Sequence record: NC_031934.1
DNA: 64,000 nucleotides
From: Escherichia phage MX01
Direction: 5' to 3' (one strand)
In this document: positions 15,185 to 23,586 of the stretch, piece after piece
How the letters are laid out: each line of letters opens with the position of its first letter
Position numbering within the stretch: position 1 is the first letter of the stretch
Made by a program: the position numbers and the translations under genes
The notes under the pieces: generated by a model
Seen by the model: the letters and a program-made list of their open reading frames with translations, nothing else
Told to the model about the DNA's origin: nothing
Database searches by the model: none

Positions 15185-15190
15185 CAAAAA

Positions 15191-15210
15191 AGGAGAGCAT
15201 ATGCTCTCCT
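15191..15210. terminator. Bidirectional terminator between gene 54 and the alt cluster
   Basis: Perfect 20-nt palindrome aggagagcat/atgctctcct flanked by an A-run and a T/G-run. Confidence 0.7.
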
Positions 15211-15219
15211 TTAGGGGGT

Positions 15220-15510
15220 TTATTTACGGAACGAAATGAAACCTGCTGCAGTCATTAATGGTTGCTTTTTAACAAACACTGTGACTGAAATAGGAGCTTC
15301 AGATTCAAGCTGACCAGTCACTACACCATTAAAGATATTTTCAGTTTGTTCTGGATGAGAAAAATTCTCAACAGGTCGGATATCAAACTGTTTGTCTTCA
15401 CCGAAAACTCGACGTAATTCATTACCTACGGCACTGTCAAACACTTCAGAAGCAGGGATAACGTTTTCAACTACCAGTTCTTGACCATTAAAACGGAATG
15501 CAGATTTCAT
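15220..15510 (-). CDS. Hypothetical protein (96 aa) downstream of the alt array
   Basis: ORF with GAGGAG Shine-Dalgarno; its own early promoter upstream. Confidence 0.5.
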   Translation of the reverse strand: MKSAFRFNGQELVVENVIPASEVFDSAVGNELRRVFGEDKQFDIRPVENFSHPEQTENIFNGVVTGQLESEAPISVTVFVKKQPLMTAAGFISFRK

Positions 15511-15538: not shown

Positions 15539-15568
15539 ATAGTACCACATCCTTGTGGTGTTGTAAAC
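15539..15568 (-). promoter_or_regulatory. Early promoter overlapping the 3' end of alt paralogue 1
   Basis: Minus-sense GTTTAC, 18-nt spacer, TACTAT. Confidence 0.45.
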
Positions 15569-17691
15569 TACATTTTGAATTTATTTGATAAAGAAGAGAT
15601 GTCCAAAGATGCAGCAAGGATTTCCATAGCTTCGTTGCTTTCAGAAACGGATTCATTAACCAAGAATTGACTGAATCCATCCATCAGGCGAACTTCACCA
15701 GTTTCCATCAAATGGTCACCATCGTAAACAGATTCGCTGAGCTCTGAAGGAGGTGTTACGGTAGCTTCCATAAGGTATTTGTGAGATACTCTATCATTCA
15801 TGGCAAAAGCTGCTACTTTATCAACCTTCAACAATAATCCACGCGGAAGGATAATTTCTGCTTCTTCGGCATATTCTGTAAGGTCACCAGGAGCGATAAC
15901 TTTAACTGCTTCAGCACCTCGAATAACCATACCAATTTCAGCAATTCTATCTGCAGGACCTTCAGGTGCAATTGGATTACCAAACTCGTCTTCTTCCCAT
16001 TCTACCTCTTCATCATCGACTTCACCCACATCAGATGAACTACCGCTAGCCAATTTAAACAACTCATCAGCGGAGGATAAAGAACCTTCACCACCAACAA
16101 AAACGGCTTGGTTGTCGAGGGCCATATAATTTTTACCAAATTCGCCAAAGATGTTAGGCTTTAATGAGGCTGACACAAAGTTCTTAAAGTAAAATGTTTT
16201 GTTATCGATATTATGACGCAGAATTTTGTATGGCAAATCCTGACCACGATACAAAATAGTACCCTTAGGAAGTTTAATACCCTTAGTAAATGCTGAGTCT
16301 AAATCCTTAATCAATTTAATAGCCGTTGTATTGTTTTCGGATTCAGGTTTACCTAAAAGGAACAAGTTCATAGGAGCATATTCAGCTGCGCAATATTCAA
16401 TAATAGCATTGCTTTCGTCTTTGGTTAGGCCCTTAGGTTTAATGAGCTCACCTGAATAAGCATATGCATCACTAATAGAATCGTTAATTAGTTTATAAAC
16501 GGCTTCCATAGCGAAAGCAATTCGGGATGCTTTCTCTGAAGGGGAGCCTTTAAAACGGGTACTCAGGTTATTAACAATTTTCTTAATAATATCCAGACTA
16601 TTGGTTGTATTGATTTGCGAAAGGCCACTTAAAAGTCTATCGACTTCTGTATTAAAAAATGCCATATTATTAGAGTAAATTTCAAACCCTTGTTTATCTC
16701 TATTAGCATAATTTAGTTTAAATTTACTATCAGTCATTAAAGCGTGTGTGAGAGCAATAGTGTATCTAAAGTTGGCAAGGTCCTCGCTCTTAGATTTAAA
16801 CTGAGAAGCCTGGCGCATTTTGGTAATAGCACCTTTTTTAAAGTTCTGACTAATCTGTTCAATACCTTCGTTCTCAGGGCCTTCAGCCGTGTGAACCGGT
16901 ACAGAAGCTTCAAACTCGTTATAAACCTGCAATTCTTTAGGGGACAAAGTTTCAGGCTCAGCAGTAGAATACTGCGCCGCCGCTGCCATACGACGCGAAA
17001 TCTTAGTACGAGTAATGACAGCCTTATCAGTACGTTTCTCTTCAACTTGTGCAATAGATGCCGCTACGGCTTCGACCTTACTTACGGCCTGGCCGGTTTT
17101 CTTAGAAACATACACTTCGCCAACTTTAGACTCAACTTTAGTATAAAGATCGGCATTAATTTCAGGCATACCCTTGATATCTTCAATATTAGCACCACGA
17201 CGTACTAAAAGAACGTAGGTATGTTTTCCGCTGAATTGGAACATGTCGTCAACAACTTTAAACTTACCACCGGTACGAGCCATAGCCAAGCGAGCTAATA
17301 CGCGCTGAACGGTAGGACCTTTACCTTTCATTTTCTTAGTAGGGAAACGGAACAAAACCGCGTCCATTTTAAGTTTGTTTATTTGTTCATATATGGTATC
17401 GAAAATGGTGTTCAGTGTACCGAGTGGATCGGTACCCAAACCACCCTTGAGTTCTGCCGGAGCGCCTTTAGCAGATAAACTCATTAAGATAACATGGACG
17501 TACTTATCACCCGGCTTAACCATTTTAATAGCATCGCCTTCAGACGCGTATGAAACCATACGCGCTACTAAATTGTCATTACCAGGAGCATGGACCGCAA
17601 AAATCTGCGGTACGCCCGAGCCAGGTTTAAGATTTGTTACTGGGTAATTTTTTTTATCGCTTTTATCAAAAACTTCGTTTAAATTTTCCAT
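15568..17691 (-). CDS. alt: Alt-like ADP-ribosyltransferase, paralogue 1
   Basis: 707 aa; conserved N-terminal module; C-terminal R-S-ExE signature (LYRGQ, FVSASLKP, EAEIILPRG); unique acidic insertion. Confidence 0.85.
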   Translation of the reverse strand: MENLNEVFDKSDKKNYPVTNLKPGSGVPQIFAVHAPGNDNLVARMVSYASEGDAIKMVKPGDKYVHVILMSLSAKGAPAELKGGLGTDPLGTLNTIFDTIYEQINKLKMDAVLFRFPTKKMKGKGPTVQRVLARLAMARTGGKFKVVDDMFQFSGKHTYVLLVRRGANIEDIKGMPEINADLYTKVESKVGEVYVSKKTGQAVSKVEAVAASIAQVEEKRTDKAVITRTKISRRMAAAAQYSTAEPETLSPKELQVYNEFEASVPVHTAEGPENEGIEQISQNFKKGAITKMRQASQFKSKSEDLANFRYTIALTHALMTDSKFKLNYANRDKQGFEIYSNNMAFFNTEVDRLLSGLSQINTTNSLDIIKKIVNNLSTRFKGSPSEKASRIAFAMEAVYKLINDSISDAYAYSGELIKPKGLTKDESNAIIEYCAAEYAPMNLFLLGKPESENNTTAIKLIKDLDSAFTKGIKLPKGTILYRGQDLPYKILRHNIDNKTFYFKNFVSASLKPNIFGEFGKNYMALDNQAVFVGGEGSLSSADELFKLASGSSSDVGEVDDEEVEWEEDEFGNPIAPEGPADRIAEIGMVIRGAEAVKVIAPGDLTEYAEEAEIILPRGLLLKVDKVAAFAMNDRVSHKYLMEATVTPPSELSESVYDGDHLMETGEVRLMDGFSQFLVNESVSESNEAMEILAASLDISSLSNKFKM

Positions 17692-17694
17692 TAT

Positions 17695-19740
17695 TTACCC
17701 TTGGATGAATTTTTCTGGGATTTCGTCAAAATTAATACATGAAGCTAAAATAGGCATTATATCCACCTTGGTCGATTTGACAAATGAATCAAAAGACACA
17801 GGGTTGTCGGTCTCTGTTTCTACACCTTGGTAAACAACCAATTCGCCTGTTTCCATCAATGCATCGCCATCATAGATAACCGCATTTTCTGCTAGTTGGT
17901 CTGTGGTCTGGATATCTGCTTCCAATAATTTGGTGTTGTAGTTTCCTTTATATGAGGCATCAGTAATTTTAGTAATCTTAACTGTAGTTCCACGTGGAAG
18001 AATAACCTCTTGTTCTGTTGGAGAACCTGACAATTCACCAGGCATAATTACGTTAATAGAGTCTGCACCAGAAATTTTCCAGCCGATGTTCATCATTGTA
18101 TTTTCGGAACTCGTCAGCATACTTGGAAGAACAATTTCATTATCGCCTTGGAAAGATGTCCCAGCGCGATAGTCTTGATGTACTGCTGCCATTGCGACGT
18201 TTGATACCCAGCCGCCAAAGATAATTGGCTTAAGGGACGTTGATACATAGTTCCTGAAATAAAACAATTTTGAGTGTTTGATTTTATCAAAAGTGTTAAC
18301 ATTTAAATATTGCCCACGCCAAAGTGTAATATCAGGTGGCAATTTATGGCCAATTTCAAATGCCGCATCCATATCGTTAATTACTTCAATTACACGCTGG
18401 CTATCAATGAATTCTGCATCCTCTTCATAATAATTACCCAACAAATAATTATTAACATCGGTATAATATTGGCCACAATAAGAAGAAATAGCCTCACGCT
18501 GCTCATACTCAAATCGATTATCGCTATAACCGGCTGTAAAATGCATAAGACTTTCTGATGCTTCATTAGCAAAGTCGGTAACAGCAGCACTTATACGTTG
18601 AGCATACTCTTGTTCCCAAAGCTCTGCTGCATATTCTGACGCATCCATATTAGGAGGGGCCTCATTCACTTTTCTTTCGATAAATGCAGCTTTGCGAAGG
18701 TTAAGAATCTCTGCACATGATTCGGCAAAAATCTGCATCTGCTTCATACTGCCAACAGGAGCACGTTTAAGTTCACGATGCATACGGTTAAAAATTGGGT
18801 CAGAGTCTTCGACTCGAATTTCTTCTTTCCAAACACCATTTGCTCGCATAGCCGTATCTGCCGCGCGCATACGGTCCATAGTATTCGTTTCAGAAGGTCG
18901 AACAAAAATTTCTAGTTCTTCATAATCATCGATAAGTTCTGCCGTAGCCGGTCGACTAAACTTAGCAGCTTCTGCATCAATTTCGTCCCAACCTTCCGGA
19001 ACTTCATCTCGAGGAGAATACTGGGCTGCGGCCACAGCACGCCTAGAAATCTTGGTAGTAGTAATAACAGCCTTATCCGTACGTTTTTCTTCGACTGCCG
19101 CTATACTAGCAGATAGTGCTTCTATTTTGGTTACTGATTGGCCGGTTTTCTTAGAAACATAAACCTCACCAACTTTAGACTCAACCTTAGTGTAAAGGTC
19201 TGCATCAATTTCAGGCATACCTTTTATGTCCTCAATATTAGCTTGTTTACGAACCAGTAAAACGTATGTATGTTTGCCTGTAAATTGATACATATCATCG
19301 ACAACTTTAAACTTGCCGCCAGTACGAGCCATCGCCAAACGTGCCAATACACGTTGAACAGTAGGACCCTTACCTTTCATTTTCTTGGTAGGGAAGCGGA
19401 AAAGAACTGCATCCATTTTAAGTTTATTTACCTGTTCATATACCGTATCGAAAATGGTATTCAATGTACCAAATGGGTCAGAACCTAACCCACCTTTCAA
19501 CTCGGCTGGGGTACCCTTAGCAGACAAACTCATTAGAATAACGTGGACATATTTGTCGCCTGGCTTAACCATTTTAATAGCGTCTCCTTGAGACGCATAA
19601 GATACCATACGAGCAACCAAGTTATCATTACCTGGTGCTTGGATAGAGAAAATCTGTGGAATACCGGAACCTGGTTTAAGATTTATTACTGGATAGTTTT
19701 TAGCGGAATCACTATCAAAAACTTCGTTTAAATTTTCCAT
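17695..19740 (-). CDS. alt: Alt-like ADP-ribosyltransferase, paralogue 2
   Basis: 681 aa; same N-terminal module; LWRGQ, YVSTSLKP, EQEVILPRG. Confidence 0.85.
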   Translation of the reverse strand: MENLNEVFDSDSAKNYPVINLKPGSGIPQIFSIQAPGNDNLVARMVSYASQGDAIKMVKPGDKYVHVILMSLSAKGTPAELKGGLGSDPFGTLNTIFDTVYEQVNKLKMDAVLFRFPTKKMKGKGPTVQRVLARLAMARTGGKFKVVDDMYQFTGKHTYVLLVRKQANIEDIKGMPEIDADLYTKVESKVGEVYVSKKTGQSVTKIEALSASIAAVEEKRTDKAVITTTKISRRAVAAAQYSPRDEVPEGWDEIDAEAAKFSRPATAELIDDYEELEIFVRPSETNTMDRMRAADTAMRANGVWKEEIRVEDSDPIFNRMHRELKRAPVGSMKQMQIFAESCAEILNLRKAAFIERKVNEAPPNMDASEYAAELWEQEYAQRISAAVTDFANEASESLMHFTAGYSDNRFEYEQREAISSYCGQYYTDVNNYLLGNYYEEDAEFIDSQRVIEVINDMDAAFEIGHKLPPDITLWRGQYLNVNTFDKIKHSKLFYFRNYVSTSLKPIIFGGWVSNVAMAAVHQDYRAGTSFQGDNEIVLPSMLTSSENTMMNIGWKISGADSINVIMPGELSGSPTEQEVILPRGTTVKITKITDASYKGNYNTKLLEADIQTTDQLAENAVIYDGDALMETGELVVYQGVETETDNPVSFDSFVKSTKVDIMPILASCINFDEIPEKFIQG

Positions 19741-19743
19741 TAT

Positions 19744-21828
19744 TTACCCTTGGATGAATTTTTCTGGGATGTCATAGAGGTCTATGCATGAAGCCAAAAG
19801 AGACAGCACATCAACCCGTGTAGATTTAACAAATGAATCAAAAGATACAGGGCTTTCGGAAGTATCGAAATCATCTTGATATACGACCAACTCGCCGGTT
19901 TCCATTAGTACGTCACCATCATACACCACAGATTCTTGAAGCTCATCTGTTGTCATAACTTCGGCTTGGATGAGTTTTGTATTATTAGATGTTGTTCCAT
20001 CATTATTAGAAGCATCTGTTATTTTATTAACTTTGACCATTAATCCACGTGGTAGAATAACTTCAGCTTCAGTTGCTATTCCGAGATTTCCTGGATATAC
20101 AACATTAACTTTATGAGCCCCATCAATCGCCCATCCTATTTGAACTTTAACGTATTCAGGATTTTCTTTATATGCTCTTATTTCATTAGGATTGATAGTT
20201 ATTCCTTCTTCATTTTTATCGACTGTCAATTCATTGCGAACTTCAGGTTCTAAAAGACCAATACCTGCGTGGGTAACACCAAAACGTCCGAAAATGATAG
20301 GAGTTAATGAAGTAGATACAAAATTTCTAAAATAAAACACTTTATTTTTAACTAGTGCTTCGTATATAGGAGCAGTCATACTCTGTGCACGATAAACTGT
20401 GATGCCTTCTGGTATACGGTCGCCATTTTCAAAAGCAGAATCCAAATTATTAACTGCAGATTCGATATCTTTTTCACTCATAATCTCATAGTTATGAGGA
20501 TTGTAACGACCTAAAAGAAGGTTATTTATATCGCCGTATCCAGAGCCACAATATTCTCTGATGCCACGCTTTTGCGATGGGGTATATTTAGAACCCTCAC
20601 GAGCAATAGTAATATCAACCATTGAACCACCACCCACACCAGCAAAACTATATACGCGTTTTTTAATGAATTTGGTCTTGGCTGCTTTCCACTTGGACTC
20701 GGTCAATTCATTCCAGAGGTCATCAGGTTGTCCTTTACGAGTTTTGTTATGCGTAGCCAACCACTCGCCTTTGTATTCTTCGAAAACGGTATTAATAGCA
20801 GAGGCATATTTTTCTAGAGCTTTAACAGATGTCAAAGGTTCGTTTTTGATGGCTGATAGGATTTTCTCTTTAATTTTCTCTTTGATTTCACCTATACCGT
20901 GAAGAGGAAACATTTTATAATCGTAATGCAATTCTTCAGCAGTACCTTCAGCTACTATATTAGCAACCTTATTTTTAGCCGCAGGAGAATTGTTATTAGT
21001 AACCATTTCCTGGGCCTCAGGGATTAATGGAACTGTTGCCGGTTTATTAAAATCCGCTGCAGTAGCTTCATATTTCTTAAACAATTCACTTTCATTACGA
21101 TAAGATTCCAATGATTGGCTTGCTGCAATGGCGCGCCTAGAAATCTTAGTCTTGGTTATAACCATTTTATCAGTGCGACGTTCTTCAACCTTAGCAATAC
21201 TGCCGGCAATAGCAGTTTCTTTAGTAACCTGCACACCTTCTTTTTTGGAAATATAAACTTCACCGACATCAGAATCTACCTTAGTATACAATTCAGCATT
21301 AATTCCAGGCATACCTTTGATATCTTCGATATCAGCTTGTTTACGGACTACCAGGATGTAAGTATGTTTACCGGTAAATTGGTACATAGCCGGAACCACT
21401 TTAAAACGTCCACCGGTTTTCTGTGTTACCAAACGTTGGATAATACGTTGAACGATAGGGCCTTGACCTTTCATTTTCTTGGTAGGAAAACGGAACATCA
21501 CGGCATCCATACGAAGCTTTTTAACTTGGTCATAAACCACATCAAAAATAGTATTAATCGCATCTACAGGAGTAGGGCCAAGGCCACCTTTAAGTTCGGC
21601 TGGAGTACCTTTAGCTGAAAGGCTCATAAGGATAACGTGGGCATATTTATCACCCATTTTAACTTGTTTAATAGCATCACCTTCAGAAGCGTAGGATACC
21701 ATACGAGCAACTAATTGGGACTCTGCATCGCCAATCTTCCAAATCTGGGGTACTTTAAGTTTTGGGTTCAAGTTTACTGTAGGCAGAGTGCCTTCGGACT
21801 CAAACACTTCATTTAATTGTTCGGTCAT
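19744..21828 (-). CDS. alt: Alt-like ADP-ribosyltransferase, paralogue 3
   Basis: 694 aa; same N-terminal module; VYRAQ, FVSTSLTP, EAEVILPRG. Confidence 0.85.
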   Translation of the reverse strand: MTEQLNEVFESEGTLPTVNLNPKLKVPQIWKIGDAESQLVARMVSYASEGDAIKQVKMGDKYAHVILMSLSAKGTPAELKGGLGPTPVDAINTIFDVVYDQVKKLRMDAVMFRFPTKKMKGQGPIVQRIIQRLVTQKTGGRFKVVPAMYQFTGKHTYILVVRKQADIEDIKGMPGINAELYTKVDSDVGEVYISKKEGVQVTKETAIAGSIAKVEERRTDKMVITKTKISRRAIAASQSLESYRNESELFKKYEATAADFNKPATVPLIPEAQEMVTNNNSPAAKNKVANIVAEGTAEELHYDYKMFPLHGIGEIKEKIKEKILSAIKNEPLTSVKALEKYASAINTVFEEYKGEWLATHNKTRKGQPDDLWNELTESKWKAAKTKFIKKRVYSFAGVGGGSMVDITIAREGSKYTPSQKRGIREYCGSGYGDINNLLLGRYNPHNYEIMSEKDIESAVNNLDSAFENGDRIPEGITVYRAQSMTAPIYEALVKNKVFYFRNFVSTSLTPIIFGRFGVTHAGIGLLEPEVRNELTVDKNEEGITINPNEIRAYKENPEYVKVQIGWAIDGAHKVNVVYPGNLGIATEAEVILPRGLMVKVNKITDASNNDGTTSNNTKLIQAEVMTTDELQESVVYDGDVLMETGELVVYQDDFDTSESPVSFDSFVKSTRVDVLSLLASCIDLYDIPEKFIQG

Positions 21829-21864
21829 AATAATTCCTCTTTAATAACCTTATTTATGCCAGAA

Positions 21865-21880
21865 AAGGCCCGAAGGCCTT
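21865..21880 (-). terminator. UUCG-tetraloop hairpin upstream of the alt array
   Basis: Minus-sense AAGGCC-UUCG-GGCCUU. Confidence 0.55.
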
Positions 21881-22061
21881 AAAGTGGTAGCAACGTACGG
21901 TATACTTCAAATTTAGGACCCTTTTCATAGCGGTCGAAATTATCTTTAAAATCAGCGAATGCGATTTCATTTTCAAATTCAAGGACAATTTGGGACACTG
22001 CAGTGGAGACATCCCCACCTTCTTTATATCCAATAACCACGGTTTCTAAATAAGCTTTCAT
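21879..22061 (-). CDS. Hypothetical small protein (60 aa) downstream of ligase
   Basis: ORF starting 1 nt after the ligase stop (TAAtATG junction). Confidence 0.45.
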   Translation of the reverse strand: MKAYLETVVIGYKEGGDVSTAVSQIVLEFENEIAFADFKDNFDRYEKGPKFEVYRTLLPL

Positions 22062-22062
22062 A

Positions 22063-23586
22063 TTATAGTCCAGTTTGAGACCAATCACCAAATACATCTT
22101 CAAATGTATCAGCTTCTGTTTTATCGAAACGCCAACCTTTAATGATTGGAAGGAAAATACCTACAGTATCGGTACGTCCTTTAGAATGAACCCAACCATT
22201 ACATTCACAGTCAGCAATACGTCCAATCAACTTACCTTCACGAGCTTGTTTCATAAGAAGTTCACGGTCTAAATCAGGACGGTCTTCCAATGGAATCAAT
22301 ACTTTTTTACCTGATTTATCTTTCTTATGGGTGGTATCTTTAAAGCCTGAACCACAGTCGCTTGTAATTCGACGACAACGTGATACCAACTCGACACCAC
22401 CTAGCTTGTTAGGGTCCTTCGAGTGTTCATAATAACCCACCACTTCTAAAGCAATATCGATTACTTCTTTGAACTTGATAAGATTCTTAGAACGACGGTT
22501 TTCCCAGTAGGAGTCCATGTTCTTAAGGATAATGCCTTCCAGACCCTGGTCGACATATTTCTTATAAACGACTTTAGCTTCTTCAAGATTATTAACCCAC
22601 CGGTTTTCGATAGCTTCAACACGCGTTGTACCATGCAATACGACATTATGAGCAACCATAAGTTCTAAGGCTGTAAAGCGTACATCATACTTATCGCCTT
22701 TAATTTTACCTTCGGAATATACGACATCCAATGGGACATAATCCCATGCCTGTAATACCATACCAGCGGCTTCAGTAGCCGAAATAGTTCCTTGAAGAGC
22801 TTTGTTAGCCAAGCCATTTGACGTAGAACGATTGGCGACAGTTTGGAATTCCTTAGCCTTACTTAATTCAGGAAGTTCCTCGTCAAACATACTAAACAAA
22901 TCATTAGATGCTTTAGGTTCTACCTTAGGAGTATGGTAAACTAATTCGCCATCAATCATAACGCCATTAGGATGGCGTTGTCGAGCTTCTTCGGTCATGG
23001 CCATTAATTCAGCCGCCAAAAGATTAAGCCCTTGATATTCGTTACCACCACGAGTAAGGAATGTCACACCATCGTTACGAACTTCGGCAAAACAACGAGC
23101 ACCATCAGCTTTTAATTGAGCAAACGCTGGCCATTTAATATTTTTCTTAATCAAAGCTTCATCATAAGAACTCGCCAACATCTGCGGTTGTTCAGGGATT
23201 AAACCTTTCCAAACCTTGTTAGCAATAGAAATCGATGCACCACATTCAAGGTCGCGCATCATTACACGACGTAATACCTCGGCATCCGGGGCCTTAGCAT
23301 CAGCAATGATTTGAGCCAGTTCTTCAATAGCCGCATTACCCGTAATCTTACGTGTGGCTAATGTGAATTCAGCGAAATCAAGAAGGTCTTCAAGAGTAAT
23401 CATACCAAAGGATTGAGATGTAAATCCAGGTTCTGGCCACTTTTTAATACCGTAGTTCAGACGACGGGTATAAGCCATACGATAAACACGTTTCAGAAGC
23501 TCATTGTCCTTTTCACGAGCAATAATGGCTTCTTTAGCTTTAGTAGAATCAATAGCAGCAATTTCGTTTAAAATATCTAAAATCAT
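22063..23586 (-). CDS. 30: ATP-dependent DNA ligase gp30
   Basis: Start at MILDILNEIAAI with GAGGT Shine-Dalgarno; KADGAR adenylation motif; matches T4 ligase as recalled. Confidence 0.9.
   Translation of the reverse strand: MILDILNEIAAIDSTKAKEAIIAREKDNELLKRVYRMAYTRRLNYGIKKWPEPGFTSQSFGMITLEDLLDFAEFTLATRKITGNAAIEELAQIIADAKAPDAEVLRRVMMRDLECGASISIANKVWKGLIPEQPQMLASSYDEALIKKNIKWPAFAQLKADGARCFAEVRNDGVTFLTRGGNEYQGLNLLAAELMAMTEEARQRHPNGVMIDGELVYHTPKVEPKASNDLFSMFDEELPELSKAKEFQTVANRSTSNGLANKALQGTISATEAAGMVLQAWDYVPLDVVYSEGKIKGDKYDVRFTALELMVAHNVVLHGTTRVEAIENRWVNNLEEAKVVYKKYVDQGLEGIILKNMDSYWENRRSKNLIKFKEVIDIALEVVGYYEHSKDPNKLGGVELVSRCRRITSDCGSGFKDTTHKKDKSGKKVLIPLEDRPDLDRELLMKQAREGKLIGRIADCECNGWVHSKGRTDTVGIFLPIIKGWRFDKTEADTFEDVFGDWSQTGL

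Follow-up and report, generated by a model that had tools for sequence, protein, structure and literature searches.

Tandem Alt-family ADP-ribosyltransferase genes of Escherichia phage MX01 combine a lineage-specific frame with exchangeable catalytic cassettes

A 64,000-nucleotide stretch of the genome of Escherichia phage MX01 (NC_031934.1; hereafter the window) carries on its minus strand a tandem array of three genes encoding Alt-family ADP-ribosyltransferases (ARTs), designated here altA, altB and altC from upstream to downstream. The DNA of the array derives from a Dhakavirus (JS98-like, T4-type) coliphage. Segment-by-segment comparison with homologues shows that each of the three proteins consists of a lineage-specific frame, formed by an N-terminal module (N-module, residues ~1-240) and a C-terminal tail, built round an exchangeable cassette that comprises a helical linker of ~170 residues and the catalytic ART domain. 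By analogy with Alt of phage T4, we consider it probable, at roughly 0.7, that the array encodes three head-packaged, injected ARTs with different targets. T4 Alt, an NAD+-arginine ADP-ribosyltransferase, modifies the alpha subunit of RNA polymerase (Arg265) together with other host proteins, the MazF toxin reportedly among its substrates. It is a textbook example of a virion-delivered host-modifying enzyme and, to our knowledge, the only member of its family to have been studied.

The triple array as such is already known and annotated, and the window is one more instance of it, not an exceptional one. What the present analysis adds is the frame-and-cassette picture with exchange between genera, and also the conserved double processing sites and leads concerning the fold of the N-module.

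A lineage-specific frame around exchangeable cassettes

Segment identities were calculated from an alignment of 22 Alt homologues from 11 phages and were then followed in codon-aligned sliding windows. Among the three window copies, the N-modules are 88% (altB/altC), 70% (altA/altB) and 67% (altA/altC) identical, the linkers 10-20% and the ART domains 33-40%, and the last 55-65 residues are conserved again, with 67% identity between the altA and altB tails. A first-pass annotation made from the DNA letters alone had described a shared N-terminal module of about 230 residues followed by strongly divergent C-terminal halves. Alignment of the three proteins bears out the module, at 238-242 residues, and places the divergence in the centre, that is in the linker and ART domain, and not in the tail.

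Between phages, the N-module and the tail track the phage lineage; the linker and the ART domain do not. altA and Alt1 of T2 share 95% identity in the ART domain and 66% in the linker next to 47% in the N-module and 53% in the tail (66% overall), and their nucleotide identity reaches 90-95% across residues 459-598. The comparison of altA with alta of JS98 gives the opposite profile, with 97% identity in the N-module and 96% in the tail flanking 35% in the linker and 61% in the ART domain. T2 Alt1 and T4 Alt likewise share nearly the whole frame (N-module 99%, or 96-100% at the nucleotide level; tail 94%) around a linker of 32% and an ART domain of 64% identity. altA is 48% identical to T4 Alt overall and 64% in the ART domain, and is the positional and cassette counterpart of both T2 Alt1 and T4 Alt.

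The same behavior is seen for the other two copies. The N-module of altB is 28-50% identical in amino acid sliding windows to that of the sole Alt of the Gaprivervirus VR26, and the two cassettes reach up to 96% nucleotide identity over residues ~240-340 and 70-82% through the ART domain. altB is itself a mosaic, combining its altC-like N-module with an altA-like tail. altC corresponds to the second Alt of T2 (N-module 44%, linker 48%, ART domain 58%, tail 64%, overall 48%), and both proteins end in KFKM. The breakpoints are sharp and lie in two conserved islands, ...TKISRRA.AA.Q at residues ~225-245 and the stretch after E-x-E-[VI]-ILPRG at residues ~600-640.

Paralogous N-modules within a genome are 67-88% identical here, 68% in T2 and 56% in Ac42, and those of different genera are 42-47% identical. 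Because this likeness within a genome exceeds the likeness between genera, the frame undergoes concerted evolution inside each lineage, and the warheads are passed from one lineage to another. The first-pass proposal of one shared packaging and ejection module carrying three different injected effectors is thus strongly backed in its modular part by cassettes exchanged between genera at sharp breakpoints; packaging and injection would follow by analogy with T4 Alt, and distinct targets from the divergence of the cassettes. Homologous recombination in the conserved frame would swap cassettes among T-even genera and change the copy number between one and three.

Table 1. Features of the alt array and its surroundings in the window.
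Feature	Position	Strand	Remarks
altA	19744..21828	minus	694 aa; upstream copy, adjoins ligase/alt.1
altB	17695..19740	minus	681 aa; middle copy
altC	15568..17691	minus	707 aa; downstream copy ('paralogue 1' of the first-pass annotation)
altA N-module	21115..21828	minus	residues 1-238
altB N-module	19015..19740	minus	residues 1-242
altC N-module	16966..17691	minus	residues 1-242
altA cassette (helical linker + ART)	19999..21114	minus	~residues 239-610
altB cassette	17887..19014	minus	~residues 243-618
altC cassette	15733..16965	minus	~residues 243-653
altA catalytic residues	R480 20389..20391; STS 505-507 20308..20316; EAE 587-589 20062..20070	minus	from alignment
altB catalytic residues	R475 18316..18318; STS 500-502 18235..18243; EQE 576-578 18007..18015	minus	from alignment
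altC catalytic residues	R482 16246..16248; SAS 507-509 16165..16173; EAE 610-612 15856..15864	minus	from alignment
Acidic insertion SSSDVGEVDDEEVEWEEDEFGNP	15973..16041	minus	altC residues 551-573, 23 aa, within ART domain
altA putative N-propeptide MTEQLNE	21808..21828	minus	L-x-E aligned with T4 ITE-6
altB putative N-propeptide MENLNE	19723..19740	minus	L-x-E aligned with T4 ITE-6
altC putative N-propeptide MENLNE	17674..17691	minus	L-x-E aligned with T4 ITE-6
altA putative C-terminal propeptide	19747..19932	minus	62 aa after LQE-632; aligned with T4 63-aa C-propeptide
altB putative C-terminal propeptide	17698..17886	minus	63 aa after LAE-618
altC putative C-terminal propeptide	15571..15732	minus	54 aa after LSE-653; tail type II, ends ...KFKM
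Junction repeat	17664..17810		147 nt, 84% identity to 19713..19859
Upstream signals of altA	21851..21880	minus	hairpin and promoter-like box; read from the sequence, putative function
alt.1-like small ORF	21879-22103	minus	between ligase and altA
alt.-3 homologue	15220..15510	minus	96 aa, 58% identity to T4 Alt.-3; last gene in co-oriented block
Terminator-like hairpin, strong, bidirectional	15189..15212	minus	10-bp stem + T run; between alt.-3 and convergent gp54

Family identity, processing motifs and the N-module

On every sequence-level criterion tested, the three genes encode Alt-family mono-ADP-ribosyltransferases. Each of the three copies aligns with the whole of PHROG 802 ('Alt-like RNA polymerase ADP-ribosyltransferase'), from position 1 or 2 to 674 of 674 (E 2e-249 to 1e-263), T4 Alt aligns with the window copies at full-length coverage in BLASTP, and the array occupies the position typical of T4 Alt, between gene 30/alt.1 and alt.-3/gene 54. 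The ART family PF03496 is found in each copy above its cutoff of 23.4 bits (altA, E 8.8e-36; altB, 2e-21; altC, 3.9e-17). A profile of 67 homologues further matches ART toxins of solved structure, namely Certhrax, C3-like toxins, Vis, VIP2, iota Ia, CdtA and ExoS at E values of 2e-13 to 1e-5 and also SpvB, which confirms the R-S-E clade of the ART fold. The profile searches that the first-pass annotation had suggested for the C-terminal domains therefore uphold its assignment, and the R-S-ExE signature that it read in each copy is in place. Single-sequence searches of the PDB with each of the three copies return no match, so that no Alt-family structure is present there by sequence, and searches of NCBIfam and PADLOC yield no matches. 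The likeness to the C3-like, VIP2, Certhrax and iota toxins lies in ART fold clade, active-site motifs and chemistry, not in biology or delivery, those proteins being secreted bacterial exotoxins with eukaryotic targets.

In altC an alanine replaces the middle threonine of S-T-S. The second glutamate of the ExE motif is essential in T4 Alt, whose E577A mutant is inactive (PMC11404850). Counting from the start MELITE gives 576 for the second glutamate of the T4 E-M-E motif; a start at the in-frame ATG that lies one codon before it in T4 alt (L001:3004-5052) would make this 577, which fits the one-residue offset, and we take E577 to be this residue. The acidic insertion and the different tail that the first-pass annotation attributed to its paralogue 1 are both present in altC, the tail ending in ...KFKM. 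The insertion, SSSDVGEVDDEEVEWEEDEFGNP, sits after the S-x-S strand and ahead of the strand that leads to ExE, in the most length-variable stretch of the domain, and is confined to C-type copies of Dhakavirus; T2 Alt2 lacks it.

The proteins resemble T4 Alt in full-length architecture, genomic position, R-S-ExE motifs and both cleavage motifs of the prohead protease gp21, altA being the closest of the three. They differ from the T4 situation of one intact gene and a stump in that three copies are intact, in N-modules only 42-46% identical to that of T4, and in the cassettes of altB and altC, which fall into different ART clades and share 37-40% identity with T4 Alt. Labels such as 'RNA polymerase ADP-ribosylase' on the paralogues of related phages are unverified transfers by homology, and the distinction between frame and warhead is a warning against them.

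Mass spectrometry has shown that gp21 cleaves T4 Alt at ITE-6 and LTE-619, with loss of the 63 C-terminal residues (PMC5694885; processing reviewed in PMC9026906). Motifs aligned with both sites are present in each window protein, namely LNE-6/7 at the N-terminus (MTEQLNE/V or MENLNE/V) and LQE-632, LAE-618 and LSE-653 at the C-terminus of altA, altB and altC, respectively. The first-pass annotation had offered LNEVF as a possible prohead-protease site, and in the alignment it coincides with the proven gp21 site ITE-6 of T4 Alt (PMC5694885). The C-terminal L-x-E is followed by the conserved ...YDGD.LMETGE..., and the conserved tail corresponds in the alignment to the C-propeptide. The predicted mature proteins altA, altB and altC have masses of 69.4, 68.4 and 71.2 kDa and isoelectric points of 8.9, 5.2 and 6.5.

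The N-module is nearly always part of an Alt protein. A recent Pfam family, PF26846 ('Tevenvirinae_ADPRT'), covers the N-module region in a 64%-identical homologue (P0001) according to a precomputed assignment. An exhaustive HMMER search of 1.84 billion representatives finds the module in 68 clusters, nearly all of 600-712-aa proteins, and a payload scan (n = 67; 65 of the 68 cluster representatives plus the query) finds PF03496 in 58 of the 67, most of the others being fragments. Two proteins, P0064 (1,142 aa) and P0066 (541 aa), match Alt over the N-module only and have long C-terminal parts, and no recognisable ART is found in either.

A word-indexed protein search with the N-module returns three fragments or split genes only, and the alignments available for structure prediction are consequently shallow. 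The AlphaFold 2 model of altB residues 1-240 (19021-19740, minus strand) is nonetheless a confident alpha/beta fold, with a predicted local distance difference test score (pLDDT) of 81 and a predicted template modelling score of 0.83. Compared with predicted viral structures, the model matches Alt orthologues best (template modelling score, TM, 0.88-0.94 for the closest six), followed at E values of 4e-9 to 6e-4 and 11-20% identity by the N-terminal parts of large proteins (500-1,280 aa) of distant myoviruses, including phages of Aeromonas and Vibrio, Ackermannviridae and the jumbo phage Atu_ph07. These modelled similarities are a lead to the N-module being a more general delivery domain that may carry varied payloads.

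Among the fold matches in BFVD are A0A2L0UZ96 of Atu_ph07, A0A075E0T7 of Dickeya RC-2014 and A0A4P2TJL2 of Vibrio VP-1; a few of the matches carry the unverified labels Zeta-toxin, ParB/Srx or deaminase. The best PDB matches of the model, weak ones (E 0.007-0.1, TM 0.3-0.43), are almost all GNAT acetyltransferases. The loop G-G-L-G-x-D-P, nearly invariant and followed by the long helix of the N-module, lies roughly at the site of GNAT motif A, with no sequence-level support for such a relationship.

In the internal proteins (IPs) of T4, a capsid-targeting sequence is found on diverse injected anti-defence proteins. The Alt array resembles the hyperplastic locus of IPI, IPII and IPIII in joining a conserved targeting and processing element to variable injected payloads, in its L/I-x-E gp21 cleavage motifs and in its variation among T-even phages (PMC3012670). 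Unlike the IPs, in which the conserved element is a propeptide of 10-20 residues, Alt conserves a folded domain of ~240 residues plus a C-terminal tail, and its payloads are all enzymes of one superfamily.

The array also resembles polymorphic toxins and MuF-fused or polyvalent effectors, which combine an N-terminal delivery module, exchanged C-terminal toxin domains and cassette arrays (Iyer et al., 2017; PMC5512222), and a conserved module with exchanged toxin domains is what the segment identity matrices and sliding windows reveal. In sequence, however, the N-module is distinct from MuF, and all three payloads in the window are ARTs. The window contains no immunity genes and no orphan cassettes devoid of an N-module; there are no small open reading frames (ORFs) between the copies, and only alt.-3, a gene also conserved in phages with a single alt, follows them. 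Filing the array as a polymorphic toxin system was rejected for want of immunity genes or orphan cassettes.

Proposed mechanism and rival explanations

The three copies are old, and substitution patterns indicate that all are maintained by purifying selection. Between the altB and altC N-modules, synonymous divergence (dS) is saturated at ~1.9 and the ratio of nonsynonymous to synonymous divergence (dN/dS) is 0.05; the altA/altB and altA/altC comparisons give dN/dS values of 0.13-0.16, and comparison of each gene with its sister-phage orthologues gives 0.04-0.11. On the saturated dS we reject a recent duplication, in line with the first-pass annotation, which called the genes old, diversified paralogues. 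We likewise reject an increase in dosage, the ART domains being only 33-40% identical.

On the model of T4 Alt, the three genes would be transcribed together, probably from a promoter of late type that precedes altA. The frame would take each protein into the prohead core, where a gp21-type prohead protease would trim both ends, and the mature enzymes of ~68-71 kDa would be ejected with the DNA and would ADP-ribosylate host proteins within seconds of infection. Each cassette would modify a different set of host targets, and the phage would thereby inject a three-component effector cocktail. Different targets appear most likely because the ART domains are so divergent and the linkers are unrelated. 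About 40 Alt molecules are packaged per T4 head (PMC9026906). If core sites are shared, the three paralogues would presumably split these places among them.

Several points weigh against this proposal. A literature search found no virion proteomics of a multi-alt phage and no evidence of more than one packaged Alt paralogue. The difference in targets is read from sequence divergence alone, and T4 Alt is promiscuous, so that the three enzymes could have many targets in common. Its pattern of conservation makes the N-module no more than a candidate packaging determinant. The full-length structure model of altC has a pLDDT of 40, and the position of the variable loop on the ART fold comes from the alignment; because the model is this poor, a role for the side of the fold that bears SSSDVGEVDDEEVEWEEDEFGNP, which in C3-like toxins would contact substrates, can be put forward only by analogy. 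Finally, no exact copy of the T4 late-promoter box TATAAATA is present just upstream of any of the three genes. The box that follows the hairpin ahead of altA, CATAAATA (21851..21858), has one mismatch to it, and the sole exact box noted (20523-20530) falls within altA.

Plain tandem duplication followed by in-place divergence (subfunctionalisation), with no cassette exchange, would explain why the copies are tandem and co-oriented and have a 147-nt junction repeat in common, and the saturated synonymous sites of the N-modules indicate age. The two-copy state of clade I plus clade II (KFKM tail) is moreover common to Tequatrovirus and Dhakavirus, which implies at least one ancient duplication. 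Such a history nevertheless fails on ART cassettes of 90-96% nucleotide identity beside N-modules of 40-60% (altA/T2 Alt1 and altB/VR26), and equally on N-modules of 97-100% identity beside cassettes of 42-69% with sharp breakpoints between them (T2 Alt1/T4 Alt and altA/JS98 alta), and we regard it as distinctly unlikely. The retention of complete frames bears in turn on the idea that only one Alt is packaged and injected, the others acting as post-infection enzymes similar to ModA and ModB or as structural filler of the core. T4 does possess ModA and ModB, non-packaged ARTs, besides Alt (PMC9503650), Alt also serves the core structurally, the heads of alt mutants contain more DNA (PMC3012670; PMC11404850), and head volume is limited. 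Yet all three window copies keep the entire frame under strong purifying selection, whereas proteins of the ModA/ModB type lack it, and the close spacing of 3 nt together with the embedded Shine-Dalgarno sequence points to co-expression; a single packaged copy thus seems unlikely.

That at least one copy is catalytically dead, or decaying toward the stump state of T4 alt.-1/alt.-2, is highly improbable. Those stumps and a split Alt on a metagenomic Mosigvirus-like contig are precedents, and altC would be the natural candidate in view of its S-A-S and the 23-aa acidic insertion inside its ART domain. All three ORFs are intact, however, with the arginine, the two serines and both glutamates retained and dN/dS values of 0.04-0.11, and altC is the most conserved copy across Dhakavirus, its S-A-S and insertion being conserved along with it. 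Three head-packaged, injected ARTs with different targets thus remain our preferred reading of the array.

A wider and more tentative proposal, which we think possible but doubtful, is that T-even Alt is a polymorphic injected effector system in which the N-module, perhaps together with the C-propeptide, serves as a general prohead-core delivery domain for interchangeable ART warheads. If so, the N-module would be structurally related to N-terminal domains of large proteins that carry non-ART payloads in Ackermannviridae, Vibrio, Aeromonas and jumbo phages, an arms race with host defence or with targets of host takeover would drive selection of the warheads, and a three-cassette phage would neutralise three host factors at injection. 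For studies of target specificity, the arrays provide naturally occurring ART cassettes of at least four clades, and the frame offers a candidate packaging domain by which foreign proteins might be brought into T4-type heads.

Relatives, gene neighbourhood and expression signals

Throughout its 6.3 kb the array has 95.6-96.1% identity to the corresponding regions of C6, fDHCT2, QL01 and AnYang, each annotated with three Alt genes in the order A-B-C, and AnYang is the nearest match for the backbone beside it (95% over 91% of 24 kb). The Dhakavirus arrays seen are A-C (IME08), A'-C (JS98), A-B-C (window, C6, QL01), A'-B-C (KIT01, with three copies of which the first has a different cassette) and X-A-C (PSD2002). 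The C copy is last in every Dhakavirus array examined and is 95-99% identical among them. Alt homologues occur in 1,220 records of the phage collection, at 1,831 places; triple arrays are rare, the B cassette at ≥95% identity being present in only 10 records and the PSD2002-type triple in a few more.

T2 carries two intact tandem alt copies with the same 3-nt spacing as here, and T4 alt.-1/alt.-2 (L001:5056-5441) match residues 1-56 and 62-116 of the second T2 Alt at 96% identity. The single alt of T4 is thus a derived state in which the clade-II copy was deleted or decayed, and the single alt gene that the first-pass annotation gave for T4 is correct for intact genes but overlooks this remnant. 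T4 alt.-1/alt.-2, RB49 ORF183c and 44RR ORF188c have been described as paralogous alt duplications, and 44RR ORF187c as a full-length alt duplicate (Nolan et al., 2006; PMC1524935). The annotations of JS98, JS10 and IME08 list alta and altb, the Ac42 record notes an 'alt gene duplication', and a Tequatrovirus has two Alt paralogues, 43% identical, according to a genome report of 2026 (PMC13600099). The novelty that the first-pass annotation implied does not hold, given the same triple array annotated in relatives, the common two-copy arrays (T2, JS98) and a duplication reported in 2006 (PMC1524935). Its own reservation, that the array might be standard and already characterised in close relatives, applies only to presence: the array is there, but it is neither standard nor functionally characterised. 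In a literature search, alt paralogues were mentioned in passing only, and no functional study of multi-alt arrays was found.

The first copy of PSD2002 (L005:2450-4345) has a fourth cassette type, X. The ART domain of this 631-aa protein is ~37% identical to those of A, B and C and keeps R/STS/ExE; the protein has neither the long C-terminal propeptide nor the YDGD..METGE motif. In the T2 record the second Alt, although intact (L002:7101-9158; 685 aa), is annotated only as 'hypothetical', and PHROGs 23015 and 15247 ('unknown function') appear to be alt.-1/alt.-2 stumps. Stand-alone ART-only ORFs with no N-module occur in RB49 (L008:7077-7901; 274 aa) and in Klebsiella phage K5 (L007:7929-8861; 310 aa), adjoining or replacing full-length alt in Krischvirus and Jiaodavirus; the K5 ORF overlaps an upstream ORF of 816 aa that has no N-module similarity. 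On the metagenomic Mosigvirus-like contig (L013:8001-10087), Alt is encoded as two proteins whose ends overlap, one of 371 aa with the N-module and one of 340 aa with the ART, reflecting either a frameshift or sequencing error or a natural split.

The ORF map of the window confirms three intact, co-oriented alt ORFs with exactly the limits given in the first-pass annotation, and the near-abutment that it put at 1-3 nt is exactly 3 nt at both gaps. The two inter-alt junctions (17681-17716 and 19730-19765, minus strand) are identical across at least 36 nt and contain CCAAGGGTAAATAATGGAAAAT and AGAAAAATTCATCCAAGGGTAAATAATGGAAAATTT. The longer junction repeat runs from the end of a type-I tail through TAA-ATA-ATG into the next N-module. 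Within the codons for ...IQG (ATC CAA GGG), the sequence AAGGG lies 6-7 nt 5' of each downstream ATG and is likely the Shine-Dalgarno sequence for the next alt copy. The type-I tail end and N-module start together form one conserved unit of recombination and translation coupling.

Upstream of altA, a hairpin (AAGGCC-TTCG-GGCCTT) with a T run lies directly 3' of the alt.1-like ORF, and a GAGG ribosome-binding site (21836..21839) lies 5' of altA. A terminator 5' of alt is conserved among T4-like phages (PMC1524935). Scans for sigma-70-like (generic) promoters and for terminators gave background levels only. From these signals, it is plausible that altA, altB, altC and alt.-3 form a single late transcription unit. 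Beyond alt.-3, the plus-strand baseplate genes gp54, gp48 and gp29 run convergent to the array in the ORF map, and the order ligase, alt.1, alt(s), alt.-3, gp54/48/29 is identical in T4, T2, JS98 and KIT01. The window contains no tRNAs.

The alt.1-like ORF as listed overlaps the stop region of the ligase gene, and an internal ATG is its probable true start; its counterpart in a related contig belongs to Pfam PF24647 ('Phage_blade'). The alt.-3 homologue is kept 3' of alt arrays whatever their size. C-terminal extension mutants of T4 Alt.-3 evade the CmdTAC defence by blocking the degradation of CmdA (PMC11618068).

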